Of a stretch of DNA of 48,659 nt, positions 2 through 7,205 are shown one piece after another. Position numbers and translations under genes: made by a program. The first letter of the stretch is position 1. Each line of letters begins with the position of its first letter. The stretch is from Terrimicrobiaceae bacterium (GTDB lineage Bacteria > Verrucomicrobiota > Verrucomicrobiia > Chthoniobacterales > Terrimicrobiaceae). The stretch is taken from contig JBIIPZ010000024.1 in the NCBI GenBank assembly GCA_044342325.1, positions 1 to 48,659 of the forward strand, given 5' to 3'. The notes under the pieces were generated by a model that saw only the letters and a list, made by a program, of their open reading frames with translations, ran no database searches and was not told the DNA's origin.

Positions 2-319
2 GACAAGCCCGCCTTTCGTCGGAAACTACAAACGCTGCACAACCCAAAACTGAGCAAAAACGCCATGTCACTCGCCGAACAATTCCGCCAAGAAGGTCGC
101 CAAGAAGGTCGCCAAGAAGGTCGTCAGGAAGGTCGTCAGGAAGGTCTGATCTTCTCAAAGCAACAAGACATCCTCGAAGCGTTGGAAATCCGGTTCCAGC
201 GGGTGCCAGAGGGGCTGCGTGAGGAAATCGAGTTGATCGCCGATACTGCCAAGCTACAAGAATTGCACCGCGCTGCAATCCGTAGCGCCACGCTCGAAGA
301 ATTCGCTGCAGAGCTTTAA
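2..319 (+). CDS. 3' part of an Rpn/YhgA-like (recombination-promoting nuclease/putative transposase) protein, truncated by the window edge
   Basis: The frame is open from position 2 (DKPAFRRKLQTLHNPKLSKNA-MSLAEQFRQEGRQEG...). The M-S/T-L/I-A-E..RQEG motif with QEG repeats and the L..RF..VP...I tail are typical of Rpn-family C-termini. Confidence 0.7.
   Translation, partial: DKPAFRRKLQTLHNPKLSKNAMSLAEQFRQEGRQEGRQEGRQEGRQEGLIFSKQQDILEALEIRFQRVPEGLREEIELIADTAKLQELHRAAIRSATLEEFAAEL
86..145 (+). repeat. Coding tandem repeat, 5 x 12 bp (RQEG)
   Basis: CGCCAAGAAGGT x3 followed by CGTCAGGAAGGT x2. Confidence 0.95.
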
Positions 320-324
320 AGCCG

Positions 325-572
325 GGAGGGCCATCCTCCGGCATGGCCCAAATATTCCCACGAAAGCTGCCGAATCACTCCCGGAACTTCTCTGCCCAAA
401 AAACTCCCGATCCACACCCGGCACCAGCGCGGTCGAGACGACCATGCCTCTCCCGGACGCCGCTTCTCTCCAGCCCAGGGCGCTACGAGCCGGAAGCGTG
501 CCTGAAAAATGTGTCATGCGAGGACGATGAACCCTCCCTAGTTACGAATCGCGCGGCAGCGCGCCACTCCAC
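325..572. repeat. Cluster of degenerate GGAG-type REP-like palindromes
   Basis: GGAG-GGCCAT..ATGGCCC (~325-349); 428-454 reverse-complements to GGGAGAGGCATGGTCGTCTCGACCGCG, similar to 32591-32613; 549-572 reverse-complements to GGAGTG-GCGCG-CTGC-CGCGC. Confidence 0.5.
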
Positions 573-623
573 CTAAAAAATGATTTTGCTAACCATGACT
601 TTGTCAAACCACCCCCCCGCCCC

Positions 624-1528
624 TCAAACATTCCGGGCCAGCCGGAACCAAATCATGCCGTGTGGGTTTTCCGGGGTGCATGTGAAGCAGAAGTATGGGT
701 ATGGGGAACTGCCATTGATGTGTTTTCTACAGCCTCCGCGGATTCGGTGTGGTGTTCCGCTTCCTTCGGCGTCCCAGCACCATTCCCAATCGGTATCGCT
801 CATGAGGTGGACTCCAAGCTCCGCTCCCGAATGGCACAAGGGGTGATCCTCCGGTGCTTGGCCTTCCACCATGACACCTGCCGCGTTCGGCGCGCTGCCG
901 GTATTCGTCGAGGGGTTGTTTTGTGACAATGGTCCACCGCGTGCCGTCCATTCCCATTCAATGTGACTTGGCAATCTGTAGCCGTTGGCCTTGGCATTCA
1001 TGCTGATTTCGAAAGGTTCCACCGAGCCGTGCACCCTATGCCGGAGGGTCTCGCCTTTTGCTGAATACACCTGCTGAAAGCCTTCGTGTTCGCTCTTCGC
1101 ATTGCACCATTTGAGCGAATCGCTCCAGCTGACCTGCGCCACCGAAGTCCTGTTGGCGTGGAAGTAGCGGCATCTATCTCATAGCCGTGTGCCAATCCCC
1201 AAGCTCTCACCCACTCCCATTCCTCGACGAGCACAGGATATTTTCCGATTTCGAAGGAAGGCACCCGAGCGTCGGCAAATGCTGAATCGCTCGGCAAATT
1301 TCCTCCCGGCACCTCCAGCAGAACTGTGCCGTCCACTGTGAACTCGGATGGCCGCGCAAATGCCAGTAGCAATCTTTTCCTGTCACCCAGCTTGTTGATT
1401 CCCAATTTTTCCAGATCGCTGTCGTCTAGATAATTGATAATATCGTCCTTGACAGCTTGATCTGCAAAAAGAGGCATGAGGTGCTCGAGCTTTGTTTCCT
1501 CGAGGATCGCCTTGAGCCGGTTTTTCAT
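624..1528 (-). pseudogene. SAM domain + FGE-sulfatase-like domain protein, split by a 1-nt frameshift near 1143-1147 (pseudogene or sequencing error)
   Basis: ORF 998..1567 carries the SAM domain and the FGE N-part (true start ATG 1528). ORF 624..1142 continues with VSWSDSLKWCNAKSE...GYRLP...WEWCWD...FRLAR. Colinear with the paralog at 1533..2441. Confidence 0.8.
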
Positions 1529-1532
1529 CCCG

Positions 1533-2441
1533 TTATGACTGGGTGCTTCGGGCCAAGCGAAAACCAATGACGCCGTAGCGGGTTTCGGGACTTCGGCTTA
1601 TGCGGTAACACACCGTGCTTTCGCCTTCTTTGTTTCTCCAACTGCCCCCGCGTATGCGGTGCGCGTAGCCGCTCTCGTCGAGATCCCAGCACCATTCCCA
1701 CACATTTCCGCTCATGTCGTGAATCCCAAGCTCGTTCGCCGCCTTTTTGCCAACCGGCTGGACCGAGCCTGTCGAGTTTTCTTCATACCATCCGACATCC
1801 GTTGGAGTATTGCTGCCGCTAAATTTGTAGCCCTTGCTCAGAGGACCGCCGCGAGCCGCCCATTCCCACTCCGCCTCTGTGGGAAGGCGGTAACCATTCG
1901 CCCTCTCGTGTCTTGTGATGAGCCGTGATCCATCTGGGCCAAACTCGCCGCTTCGGTAAACTTTTCCCTCCATGTGGTAGACGGGTCGCAGTAGCTCATG
2001 TTCGCTCTTCGCGTTGCACCATTTGACCGCATCATACCAGCTCATGTGCGTGATGGGATGCCAACTGCCTTTGGCTTGGCCCGCTCCGAGTTCATAGCCG
2101 TTAGCCAATCCCCAGATGCGCACCCATTCCCACTCATCCTGCATCACGGGATACTTCCCGATTTCAAACTCCTCGACATGCAGTCCCGCCAGCTCCGAGT
2201 CTTCAGGTAGAATCCCGGCGCTGACGGTGATCATCACGGTGCCGCCGAGAGGCAGGTCGATATTGTAGGCAAAAGCGGCGAGTAGTCGCTTGCGGTCGCC
2301 CAGCTTGTGAATCCCGAGTTCCTTCAAGTCGGAGTCCGTCAACTTCGTCAAAATATCATCCGTGATGCCCTGCTCCGAAAAGCTCGGCAGCAAATGCTCC
2401 ATTTTCTCCGACTCTAGAATTGCGGTGAGTTCTTTGCCCAT
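1533..2441 (-). CDS. SAM (sterile alpha motif) domain + FGE-sulfatase/SUMF1-family (CLec-fold) protein
   Basis: N-terminal LLPSFSEQGITDDILTKLTDSDLKELGIHKLGDRKRLLAAF fits the SAM pattern. The C-part has GKYPV, SWYDAVKWCN, YRLPTEAEWEWAARGG, NELGIHDMSGNVWEWCWD, RGGSW and GFRLAR. Start placed at ATG 2441 by comparison with the paralog. Confidence 0.9.
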   Translation of the reverse strand: MGKELTAILESEKMEHLLPSFSEQGITDDILTKLTDSDLKELGIHKLGDRKRLLAAFAYNIDLPLGGTVMITVSAGILPEDSELAGLHVEEFEIGKYPVMQDEWEWVRIWGLANGYELGAGQAKGSWHPITHMSWYDAVKWCNAKSEHELLRPVYHMEGKVYRSGEFGPDGSRLITRHERANGYRLPTEAEWEWAARGGPLSKGYKFSGSNTPTDVGWYEENSTGSVQPVGKKAANELGIHDMSGNVWEWCWDLDESGYAHRIRGGSWRNKEGESTVCYRISRSPETRYGVIGFRLARSTQS

Positions 2442-2545
2442 GCCGGAAAATACCAAGCCTTCCCCCGCGTCAAAGGTGGGTATTCCCCGAATGAAAACAA
2501 GGAAGTCGCGGGGTAATACCAAAAGCTGAATGCTTTTAGACTTAC

Positions 2546-2605
2546 TGTAGCGGCGGTCTATGACCGCCGATGGTTAACTCCGACGCTCATAGAGACGCCG
2601 CTACA
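2546..2605. repeat. GTAG-type REP doublet (REPIN-like)
   Basis: TGTAGCGGCGGTCTATGACCGCCG...CGACGCTCATAGAGACGCCGCTACA: two inverted, GTAG-initiated palindromes. Confidence 0.8.
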
Positions 2606-2667
2606 ATTTAAAACGGCGCGCTAAAGTTGAAAACCTAATAGATACTGGTATAACCCTTCTGCCCCGA

Positions 2668-4932
<2,265 letters not shown>

Positions 4933-5048: not shown

Positions 5049-7205
5049 TTAGGCCTTCTGCTCGAGGATGGCTGCCTTGACCTGGGATGGGACTTCCTCG
5101 AAGTGCGAGGGTTCCATCGAGTAGGACGAGCGGCCTTTGGAGAGTGAGCGGATGGCGGTGGCGTATCCGAACATCTCGGCCAGAGGAACCTCGGCGTTGA
5201 TTGTGCAGAGGTTGCCTTTGGTTTCCATGCCTTGAATGCGGGCGCGGCGGCGGTTGAGGTCGCCCATGATGTCGCCTTGGAACTCGTCTGGAGTCACGTT
5301 TTCGACTTTCATGACTGGCTCGAGCAGGATCGGCTTGGCTTTTTTAAGGCCGTCCTTGAGCGCAAAGATTGCGGCCATCTTGAATGCCATTTCGTTCGAG
5401 TCCACGTCGTGGTAGGAGCCGTCGGTGATGTCCACATGCACATCGATGACGGGGTAGCCAGCGACGACGCCGTTGAGGACCGCTTCCTTGAAGCCTTTTT
5501 CGACAGCGGGAATGTATTCTTTGGGAATGGTGCCGCCGACGACTTTGTTATCGATCGTGAGACCTTTGCCGCGCTCGTTCGGGCGGACTTTGCAGACGAC
5601 ATGGCCGTATTGACCGCGACCGCCGGACTGCTTGACGAGTTTGCCTTCGCCTTCGGACTCGTTGAGGATGGTCTCCTTGTAGGCGATCTGCGGCTTGCCG
5701 GAGTTTGCTTCAACCTTGAATTCGCGCAACATGCGGTCGCGAATGATTTCGAGGTGGAGTTCGCCCATGCCAGCGATGATTGTTTGGCCGGTTTCCTCGT
5801 CTGTGAACACGCGGAAGGTCGGATCTTCTTCAGCAAGACGCTGAAGGGCGATGCCCATCTTTTCTTGATCCTGCTTGGTCTTTGGCTCGACGGCCATGGA
5901 GATAACGGGATCAGGGAACGATGGTGGTTCGAGGAGAATCGGATGATCCTCGTCGCAGAGCGTGTCACCGGTTGTGATGTTCTTGATACCCACAATGGCG
6001 GCGATATCACCCGAGTAGCAGGTGTCGATATCTTCGCGCTTGTCGGCCTGAATCTGGATGAGGCGGCTGATGCGCTCGCGCTTGTTTGTGCGTGGGTTGT
6101 AAACGGTGTCGCCTTTGGAGAGCTTGCCGGAGTAAACGCGGAAGAAAACGAGTTTTCCGACGAAAGGATCGCTCCATAGCTTGAAAGCGAGCGAGCAGAA
6201 CTTGGCGTGGTCGTTCGAGACGGCTTCCATCGGTTCGCCGTTGTCAGGGTTTTGACCCTTGGCTGGGGCAATGTCGAGAGGGCCGGGGAGGTAGTCCACC
6301 ACTGCGTCGACGAGGTATTGAACGCCTTTGTTTTTGAAGGCGGATCCACCGGCGACGGGCACGAATTTATTGGCAATCGTCTGGCGACGGATGGCTGCCT
6401 TGAGTTGCTGGATGCTGATGGGCTGCTCCTCGAGGAAGAGCATGCCGATTTCCTCGTCCAGGTCGCACATTTGCGAGACGAGGTCCTCGTAGGCGGATTG
6501 GGCGATATCTTTCAGATCTTCTGGGATTTCCTCGACCGTGTAGGTCGAACCCATCGCGTCGTTGTCATGGTAAATGACGACTTTCTGGTTGATGACGTCG
6601 ATTTGCCCTTTGAGGTAATCCTCTTTTCCAACGGGGATGAGGACTGGCCATGCGTTGGCGCCGAGTTTCTGGCGCATCGAGTTCACGGCATTGTTGAAAT
6701 CCGCGCCTGTGCGGTCCATTTTGTTCACGAAGGCGATGCGGGGCACACCATACTTGGTGGCTTGGCGCCAAACGGTTTCGGACTGGGGTTGCACGCCTGC
6801 CACGCCGCAGAATACGGCAATCGCTCCGTCGAGAACGCGGAGTGAGCGCTCGACTTCGGCCGTGAAGTCCACGTGGCCGGGAGTGTCGATAATGTTCACG
6901 CGCATCTTGATGCCTTCGTATGCCTTGTAGATGCCTTCCTCTGGGCGCTGCATCCACGAGCAGGTGGTAGCGGCAGAAGTGATCGTGATACCACGCTCAC
7001 GCTCTTGCTCCATCCAGTCGGTGACCGTTGTGCCCTCGTGCACTTCGCCGATCTTGTGGATCATTCCCGTGTAGAACAGGATACGCTCTGTAAGTGTGGT
7101 TTTGCCCGCGTCGATGTGGGCGGCGATACCAATGTTGCGTGTGCGCTCAAGCGGAAACGCGCGGTTCGGAGAGTTCGGGTTCGTGGAGTCGGTCGTGGCT
7201 GCCAT
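5049..7205 (-). CDS. fusA: Elongation factor G
   Basis: [45 protein letters not shown]; follows rpsL-rpsG. Confidence 0.99.

Follow-up and report, generated by a model that had tools for sequence, protein, structure and literature searches.

A tandem pair of SAM-FGE genes in a freshwater Terrimicrobiaceae genome, possibly encoding a non-catalytic binding scaffold

Two Tandem SAM-FGE Genes, One of Them Frameshifted

The window analyzed here is an entire contig (C42, 48,659 bases) of a Terrimicrobiaceae bacterium genome, G000, which comprises 2.93 Mb in 78 contigs and is 86% complete. The nearest named relative of G000 is a metagenome-assembled genome (MAG), L017, also of the Terrimicrobiaceae (Verrucomicrobiota), and the runs that contain the window stretch are lake or freshwater metagenomes. 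Close to the start of the window lie two paralogous genes, which we call A and B. In each, a SAM domain precedes a domain of the formylglycine-generating enzyme (FGE) family with the C-type-lectin (CLec) fold. The features of this cassette are as follows.

1533..2441, minus strand: gene A, an intact SAM-FGE (CLec-fold) protein of 302 amino acids plus stop (open reading frame, Pfam and AF2 model)
2268..2417, minus strand: SAM domain of A, residues 9-58 (PF07647, 46.4 bits)
1548..2222, minus strand: FGE-sulfatase / C-type-lectin-fold domain of A, residues 74-298 (Pfam, 121 bits; Foldseek)
1529..1532, minus strand: 4-nt spacer from the stop of A to the start of B (sequence)
624..1528, minus strand: gene B, a divergent B-type SAM-FGE paralog, frameshifted (two frames, 1528..998 and about 1152..624)
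1358..1504, minus strand: SAM domain of B (PF07647, 37.6 bits; Pfam SAM_2, E 6.9e-09)
1152..1155, minus strand: site of a 1-nt deletion in B (plus-strand GTTG here, GTTTG in intact alleles)

Gene A runs from an ATG at 2441 to a TAA stop at 1535-1533, and the ATG of gene B lies at 1528-1526; the two genes are likely to share one transcript. The preliminary description of this DNA, made from the sequence of the window, had presented two co-oriented paralogs 4 nt apart, and this layout was confirmed, with both genes on the minus strand. Only gene A is intact, however. The frame of B that opens at 1528 carries the 1-nt deletion and stops at 998-1000 after 176 codons, and the remainder of the FGE domain continues in another frame, which ends at a stop at 624-626.

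Both domains of A are well above the Pfam cut-offs: SAM_2 at 43.3 bits (E 4.2e-11, cut-off 20.5), SAM_1 at 33.4 bits (5.8e-08, cut-off 23) and FGE-sulfatase (PF03781) at 121.1 bits (E 8.2e-35, cut-off 23.3). The SAM domain of B also exceeds both gathering cut-offs (SAM_2, 36.2 bits; SAM_1, 30.4 bits), and its FGE-sulfatase scores are 33.2 bits for the 3' piece and 14 bits for the 5' piece. The SAM motif noted previously, DLxxLGIxKLGDRKRLL, is present as DLKELGIHKLGDRKRLL in A and as DLEKLGINKLGDRKRLL in B. The N-termini of both proteins are charged and have no hydrophobic leader when read by eye rather than with a signal-peptide predictor, in agreement with the earlier statement that signal peptides are missing.

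The FGE Domain Has a Lectin-like Fold and Has Lost the Catalytic Cysteines

The AF2 model of A (pLDDT 86.9, pTM 0.77) was compared with known structures using Foldseek. The best match was CarF (5aoh; E 1.3e-21, TM 0.77 on the target), followed by TvpA (2y3c; 2.3e-19), and true FGEs were found at about 1e-12, all with a probability of 1.00. Sequence searches with phmmer gave E values of 1.3e-24 for 5aoh, 4.6e-22 for TvpA and about 1e-6 for true FGEs. The sequence alignments to true FGEs end at about residue 256 of A, before the FGE Cys pair; pFGE/SUMF2 (1y4j) aligns through to the C-terminal end of A. Among the 84 closest relatives, the only invariant Cys residues are C142 and C251, and none follows the RGGSW motif. 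The sole Cys of A beyond this motif, C277, is not conserved. The copper-binding Cys pair of FGE is therefore absent, as the preliminary description had held. From sequence and model, the FGE domain is predicted to be a non-catalytic lectin-fold binding module.

CarF is a periplasmic, single-domain protein of a carbapenem producer and is not known to be an enzyme. Although this carbapenem intrinsic-resistance protein is the best structural and the best sequence match of A, it has no SAM domain, and to our knowledge its role is unrelated to SAM-FGE proteins. TvpA of Treponema denticola is a surface lipoprotein that is diversified at the variable region (VR) of its C-terminus by a diversity-generating retroelement (DGR). 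It shares with A the FGE-type CLec fold and the motifs WYDA..WCN, GYRLPTEAEWEWAA and NVWEWCWD, whereas A and B have no leader, no associated reverse transcriptase (RT) or template repeat (TR), and carry a SAM domain in front. The non-catalytic FGE paralog pFGE/SUMF2 likewise has the FGE fold without the catalytic Cys pair, but it is a eukaryotic protein of the endoplasmic reticulum without a SAM domain.

The SAM Domain Recurs in Front of Other Binding Modules

AF2 models of A and of an intact B both show five helices within residues 3-58 at a pLDDT of about 80-95 (in A, helices 3-11, 15-23, 28-33, 36-41 and 47-58). Together with the Pfam scores, these models bear out the proposal that an N-terminal SAM domain is present on both proteins. 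Sequence matches of the SAM domain of A in the PDB were to ANKS6 (8.5e-07), ANKS3, caskin and tankyrase. Eukaryotic SAM domains have an established role in homo- and hetero-oligomerization. The ANKS3/ANKS6, caskin and tankyrase proteins resemble A and B in their Pfam SAM_1/SAM_2 assignment, in the five-helix bundle of the models and in the occurrence of paired paralogous SAM proteins; unlike them, A and B are bacterial and are fused to a lectin-fold domain, and the likeness is known here from sequence and model. Four SAM residues are invariant, two acidic (D28 and D38) and two basic (R50 and R52). By the pattern of known SAM polymers, they would suit head-to-tail SAM contacts, but this is only suggestive. 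A complex prediction for SAM(A 1-70) with SAM(B 1-70), made from family alignments and run without controls, gave a score of 0.01 and a mark of 0.32, values that argue neither way about binding.

A search with residues 1-67 of A against 1.84 billion representatives returned 363 matches at E <= 1e-3. Of these, 80 listed matches of at least 180 amino acids were scanned with Pfam. FGE-sulfatase was the partner in 22 (one also with Sel1), a BspA-type leucine-rich repeat (LRR) in 15 and Sel1 alone in 2; a further 17 had a SAM domain and no other Pfam domain, and 15 were multi-SAM proteins of eukaryotic type. The remaining 9 comprised two SAM-NACHT proteins (one with TPR), a SAM-cyclase-AAA_16-hydrolase, an FHA-SAM, two AAA-SAM, a SAM-kinase, a SAM-OB and a SAM-L12. 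The related SAM domains that stand N-terminal to other binding modules are 50-67% identical.

Individual loci illustrate the range of these fusions. One contig (L134, G086:C33, 6229-10323) carries tandem SAM-vWA, SAM-PA14 and SAM-DUF5077-like genes. On the metagenome contig L189 (5203-11864), an FRG-domain gene is followed by a gene for a SAM-FGE-Sel1x7 protein (603 amino acids) and, 2.7 kb further on the same strand, one for a SAM-BspA-LRR protein (456 amino acids). On L135 (G273:C1, 5545-10649), a SAM-Imm_superinfect gene lies two genes upstream of a gene for a 1322-amino-acid TIR-AAA_16-TPR protein, which is Avs/NLR-like. What these genes, which we refer to as SAM-X, have in common is a SAM domain in front of a binding module. 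The SAM-X trio of G086, a genome from a different Verrucomicrobiota family, adjoins TPR and ExbB-like genes.

Within G000, all four SAM domains sit on SAM-FGE genes (A, B, C55:16392-17276 and C48:1803-2702). A check for other SAM-bearing effectors, which the preliminary description had proposed, found none in this 86%-complete genome.

Canonical and Variable Subfamilies Recur as Pairs

The 84 closest SAM-FGE proteins were sorted by two motifs. Proteins with the canonical loop [FY]xG[ST][DN]...W[YHF]xxN plus GGSW were designated A-type, and those with neither were designated B-type. By this criterion there are 36 A-type, 42 B-type and 6 mixed proteins, and B-type proteins differ in the sequence as well as the length of this loop. 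Gene B is intact, with 301 amino acids, in two relatives of G000 (G040 and G047). In the G040 protein, the Pfam FGE match (41.2 bits) covers only profile positions 24-191, and the AF2 model (pLDDT 75.8) is confident over the SAM domain and up to two thirds of the way through the FGE domain, whereas the pLDDT drops below 50 at residues 206-232 and 257-276.

A tree of 27 genus-level copies (gene A of G003 and of L018 had been lost to an open-reading-frame filter) gave stems of 0.64-0.99 for partner clades versus 0.19-0.30 for canonical clades. In the same tree, B of the window locus groups weakly (80/67) with A of the same locus. This pattern fits a tandem duplication with accelerated divergence afterwards.

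The tandem SAM-FGE pair occurs at the window locus in three further genomes (G040, G044 and G047). It also occurs in another genomic context in G003 and L018 (300 and 299 amino acids, 12 nt apart in L018), and at a second locus a tandem pair is found in G047, G044 and G059. A metagenomic protein of 631 amino acids (P0121) joins the two in a single SAM-FGE-SAM-FGE chain, in which the first unit is canonical and the second degenerate. Since P0121 comes from one 2.9-kb contig and is alone in its cluster, it is supportive rather than decisive. The idea of a two-subunit system thus gains from the recurrence of the pair, the size of the B-type and the fusion protein, which mark the pairing as no accident, but the second subunit is a pseudogene in the window and is dispensable in relatives.

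All 13 genus genomes (12 sampled plus G000) carry one or more matches that extend to the N-terminus of A. Across the phylum, PF07647 was found in 5 of 301 sampled genomes, G000 included. The ESM Atlas holds three SAM+FGE clusters, with 56-61 members, in which Verrucomicrobiota is the commonest phylum. A metagenome scan recovered SAM+FGE open reading frames at 5 of 76 loci, too few for adjacency statistics.

The Lesion in Gene B Is a Natural Allele

The cassette was compared among five close genomes (G000, G040, G044, G047 and L017), in which the A proteins are 93-99% identical; the B copy of G053 runs off its contig and was excluded from lesion counts. Alignment column 375 of gene B (window about 1152-1155) is absent in G000 alone versus the four close relatives. 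The B gene of L017 has a different single-base loss, at column 220, and that of G044 has a TAG inside the WEW motif.

Logan contigs from four runs (X2, X3, X4 and X10) were mapped on window positions 500-2700. The intact allele, with its T behind 1152, accounted for all of the contig depth in X4 (26.8/26.8) and in the RNA-library run X10 (5.75/5.75). The T was missing throughout X2 (0/6.27) and X3 (0/66.3), where the contigs with the deletion span 522-2568 and 877-2568, respectively; both runs are possibly from the same sampling campaign as the probable source run, X1. Because independently assembled contigs carry either the deletion or the intact form, the lesion is a natural allele, and it constitutes a segregating polymorphism of lake populations. 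The occurrence of the same deletion in the X2 and X3 contigs rules out an assembly error as the cause of the frameshift. A programmed frameshift was also considered. No slippery heptamer was seen by eye around the lesion, and since alleles without it occur, an ordinary mutation explains the frameshift more simply.

The truncated B product would retain the SAM domain and about 50 in-frame FGE residues (to about residue 124), followed by an out-of-frame tail. Contigs of the RNA library cover A at 1527-2429 (depth about 18-22) and B at 835-1478 (depth 5.75); they cover nothing at 2498-2700, nor the 3' end of the isocitrate dehydrogenase gene upstream. As the contigs cover A and intact B and not the adjacent intergenic region, they give a weak hint that A and the intact B allele are expressed. 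One X10 contig over gene A (1527-2116) runs past 1527 into 103 letters that are unlike the window; because of this divergence, some strains may have sequence other than B downstream of A.

Gene A Is Conserved and One Loop of Gene B Is Nearly Neutral

Selection was assessed with pairwise Nei-Gojobori estimates of dN/dS among the five close genomes. Gene A is under strong purifying selection (0.06-0.13). For gene B, the overall range is 0.12-0.29. Outside residues 201-233 it is 0.09-0.18, which indicates that B was constrained until recently. Within the 201-233 loop, dN/dS is 0.29-1.14 and exceeds 1 in one of ten pairs. The loop is thus close to neutral and, since the ratio is below 1 in the other nine pairs, positive selection is not demonstrated. 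Across the family, variability peaks in the linker (residues 59-69) and at residues 201-233 and 267-280. By likeness to TvpA, the latter two segments may form the ligand face.

A Candidate SAM-Assembled Binding Scaffold

The best explanation of the locus is a two-gene cassette of non-enzymatic binding proteins that are presumably cytoplasmic. Gene A encodes the conserved, canonical member, and B belongs to the widespread, divergent B-type, whose loops on the presumed ligand face are degenerate and hypervariable. More tentatively, and with rather less than even confidence, we propose that the two products make up a SAM-assembled, multivalent, non-catalytic binding scaffold with a constant component, A, and a variable one, B. 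The SAM domains would drive homo- and hetero-oligomerization of A and B. Oligomerization would bring the constant and the variable lectin-fold module together in a multivalent scaffold, which would act by binding or sequestering a ligand. Because neither protein has a catalytic or effector domain, binding and scaffolding would be the whole of its activity.

Several observations weigh against this proposal. Gene B is broken in three of the five close genomes (G000, L017 and G044) by independent lesions, which suggests that it is dispensable. At the second locus, a partner was not found beside the canonical gene (A2) in G000, G040 or G026, where the canonical gene stands alone. The SAM-SAM contact is projected from the established role of SAM domains in eukaryotes. 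A disulfide between C142 and C251 could suit an oxidizing compartment and not the cytoplasm. The closest FGE relatives elsewhere have N-termini that resemble signal peptides or lipoprotein leaders, as judged from 12 of 31 viral-contig matches and 11 of 79 genome-contig matches that were read. G000 itself encodes an apparently exported counterpart of the same subfamily, a 1771-amino-acid protein (L156, G000:C20, 916-6231) with a signal-peptide-like start, in which two FGE domains, 45-46% identical to gene A, flank 13 He_PIG immunoglobulin-like domains. FGE relatives occurred at 31 viral-contig loci; all 12 of the proteins read there had leader-like N-termini and lacked a SAM domain, and a viral origin of the cassette was rejected.

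The roles of SAM domains in bacteria have barely been explored, and the domain is the classic polymerization module of eukaryotes. The well-defined bacterial subfamily described here is fused only to binding modules (lectin-fold FGE, LRR, Sel1, PA14 and vWA), often in tandem, and among its SAM-FGE genes the combination of a canonical and a variable member keeps recurring. If the SAM domains co-assemble, these proteins would offer a simple, testable model of avidity-based recognition scaffolds that work without NTPases, and the use of FGS (FGE-sulfatase) lectin folds as intracellular sensors would be extended. If the SAM domains do not assemble, the genes represent a lineage-specific family of binding proteins. 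The segregating null allele of B is a handle for population genomics in lake time series.

Relation to Known Conflict Systems

In the text of two studies of prokaryotic conflict systems (Kaur, Burroughs, Iyer, Aravind 2020, PMC7159879; 2021, PMC8195603), TvpA-like FGS domains are described as C-terminal sensor or "neutralizing" modules with the other domains always N-terminal, and they are tied to vWA-MoxR, STAND or GTPase systems, often with DGRs. The text of a 2026 preprint (bioRxiv 10.64898/2026.01.04.697583) places FGE-sulfatase-like sensors on STAND proteins. A term search of the main text of these three sources found no mention of a SAM/FGS combination. A literature search found no published characterization of a bacterial SAM plus FGE-sulfatase architecture, in keeping with the preliminary description, whose author had recognized no characterized system of this kind. 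The architecture joins an FGS lectin-fold module to a SAM domain as adaptor, and it comes in pairs of one canonical and one variable member.

A and B resemble the FGS conflict systems in that a non-catalytic, TvpA-like FGE domain is C-terminal and another domain N-terminal, in the absence of a signal peptide and in the presence of multiple divergent paralogs. They differ in that they have no vWA-MoxR, STAND or GTPase partner, no EAD/Death-like adaptor, no effector and no DGR, and carry an N-terminal SAM domain instead. The neighbors found across the loci (isocitrate dehydrogenase, EF-G, an autotransporter, UvrD, Amt, an epimerase, an M20 peptidase and PBP1) place the cassette outside the FGS-NTPase conflict systems.

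Alternative Explanations

A role in conflict could nevertheless be envisaged without such partners. The cassette would then be an NTPase-less scaffold for intracellular pattern recognition or neutralization, in which the lectin modules bind phage or other invader molecules, the B loop tracks the invader, and gain and loss of copies reflects an arms race. We regard this as unlikely. It would accord with the part that FGS domains play as sensors or neutralizing effectors in the systems above and as sensors on STAND proteins. The SAM partners LRR, Sel1/TPR-like and FGE mirror the sensor types of NLR proteins, and rarer relatives combine SAM with NACHT and TPR or with a cyclase and AAA_16, or, in G273, place SAM-Imm_superinfect near TIR-AAA_16-TPR. 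The tandem duplicates, long partner stems, near-neutral loop and three independent lesions have the look of birth-and-death evolution. The other two G000 copies also lie near an island of type II restriction-modification, PIN and RhuM genes and near a Fic (SoFic-like) gene. On the other side, PADLOC-DB 2.0 matched no family to any of five SAM-FGE sequences (A, both pieces of B and the two other paralogs), and no effector, NTPase or SAM-bearing partner was found in the 86%-complete G000 assembly. The presence of SAM-FGE in 13 of 13 genus genomes, at loci set amid housekeeping genes in conserved synteny, is unlike typical mobile defense genes, and the loop is without demonstrated positive selection. 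The signaling or conflict role suggested in the preliminary description is therefore conjectural, there being no effector, DGR, PADLOC match or NTPase neighbor.

A broader version of this idea extends to SAM-X proteins with FGE/CLec, BspA-LRR, Sel1, PA14 or vWA modules. These would be NTPase-less, multivalent intracellular receptors that capture invader components, in which head-to-tail co-polymerization of the SAM domains joins one constant binding subunit to one or more variable ones, and the segregating B null would be a snapshot of an arms race under way in lakes. We consider this version doubtful. If it were true, the SAM-X class would be a prokaryotic counterpart of the SAM-polymer signaling hubs of eukaryotes.

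Gene B might instead be a decaying tandem duplicate without any partnership, with A acting alone or as a homo-oligomer. The frameshift in the window, the lesions in three of five close genomes, the weak FGE match, the poorly modeled C-terminal third and the long clade stem all agree with decay. This is improbable as a full account, however, because the constraint outside the loop indicates a gene maintained until recently, and B-type proteins form a large, conserved subfamily (half of the 84 closest relatives) that is paired with A-type proteins in the distant L018 and G003 and fused to one in P0121.

A housekeeping role linked to the envelope is somewhat less plausible again. In this genus, the proteins would serve as lectin-like scaffolds in the cytoplasm with ties to the metabolism of glycan or peptidoglycan precursors, which would account for the presence of the family in all 13 genus genomes and the strong conservation of A. 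In five genomes (G000, G026, G044, G047 and G059), the locus-2 copy is upstream of and co-oriented with genes for an NAD-epimerase/dehydratase, an M20 peptidase and a PBP1-type transglycosylase/transpeptidase. The type-3 copies (G003, G018 and G050) adjoin genes for a PTPS_related membrane protein and a GT2-YkuD protein. Close relatives would nonetheless share synteny whatever the function. The window cassette adjoins isocitrate dehydrogenase and EF-G, and the locus-2 copy of G040 lacks the epimerase operon. At E <= 1e-20, none of 48 genomes from 15 other genera of the family showed the architecture; only 2 of them gave matches, both FGE-only.

Enzymatic activity of the SUMF1/EgtB/PvdO kind is very improbable. 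The database names "formylglycine-generating enzyme" and "SUMF1/EgtB/PvdO family nonheme iron enzyme" imply it, and the fold is common to FGE, but the catalytic Cys pair is missing from these proteins and not conserved, the closest neighbors by structure and sequence (CarF, TvpA and pFGE/SUMF2) are non-enzymatic, and Pfam detects neither a DinB-like domain nor a fused NTPase in A or B.

Least probable of all is that the genes are targets of a DGR: although TvpA, itself diversified by a DGR, ranks second among the structural and sequence neighbors and the B loop is hypervariable, the only RT of the 86%-complete assembly (406 amino acids; L097, G000:C3, 6543-7763, minus strand) reads as a maturase RT of group II intron type, the 3' parts of A, B and the two other paralogs have no second, TR-like copy in the assembly, and the variable sites of the loop involve all base pairs rather than adenine specifically and lie away from the C-terminal VR position. 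For this assembly, a DGR target was rejected on the RT type and the lack of such a repeat.

Genomic Surroundings

Two further features lie beside the cassette.

2547..2604, no strand: REP-like palindromic element, intergenic, upstream of A (sequence; 17-mer core repeated)
2..319, plus strand: C-terminal fragment (105 amino acids) of an Rpn/YhgA-like (Transposase_31) gene at the contig edge, resembling the C-terminus of a 410-amino-acid protein on contig C3

The genes for a monomeric isocitrate dehydrogenase and EF-G lie upstream of the cassette, in synteny with G040, G044 and G047. In L017, a homologous cassette of 1.9 kb is found in a different context, and the homology stops at the REP-like flanks. 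In this MAG, the gene upstream of the SAM-FGE pair (1123-3759 of L017, minus strand) encodes an 877-amino-acid protein with a Cas12f1-like TNB and a weak RuvC match, a TnpB/Cas12-like nuclease. The pairs of G003 and L018 have UvrD and Amt as neighbors, and L018 also has an autotransporter upstream. Neighborhood clustering of 23 loci found no conserved partner gene besides the SAM-FGE paralogs, and no NTPase or effector.

The other two G000 copies adjoin an island of RhuM, NgoMIV restriction endonuclease (RE), C5 methyltransferase and PIN genes, the Fic gene and the epimerase-M20-PBP1 genes. On L154 (G000:C55, 3114-7259), the place that the partner gene occupies in relatives is taken by genes for RhuM, a LolA-like protein, an NgoMIV-type RE with a C5 cytosine methylase, and PIN.

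The cassette has REP-like repeats on both sides, one being the palindrome at 2547-2604 and the other a stretch of high depth at 513-612. The 17-mer core of the palindrome at 2547-2604 occurs in 61 copies on 22 contigs, allowing up to 3 mismatches. Metagenome depth over the cassette flanks (513-612 and 2498-2645) reaches about 10-25 times that of the genes. Joints such as 605>2580 in X2 and X3 skip the cassette, with sides of 23-27 letters that lie inside these high-copy REP-like flanks. The high depth and the joints probably stem from the same repeat family at other loci, and the joints were not counted as a form without the cassette.

The Rpn-like neighbor mentioned in the preliminary description is present, but only as the 105-residue fragment listed above. 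The 410-amino-acid protein on C3 matches PF04754 (E 1.6e-45). In the window fragment, a (QEGR)n run is perfect; in the full-length C3 paralog (L097, 8691-9923, minus strand) it is degenerate. The only RT gene of the assembly adjoins this paralog. Direct repeats of 97 nt, 96% identical, lie at 6352-6448 and 9813-9909 of L097. Between them they enclose the RT gene and most of the Rpn-like gene, with the second repeat falling inside the start of the Rpn-like open reading frame.

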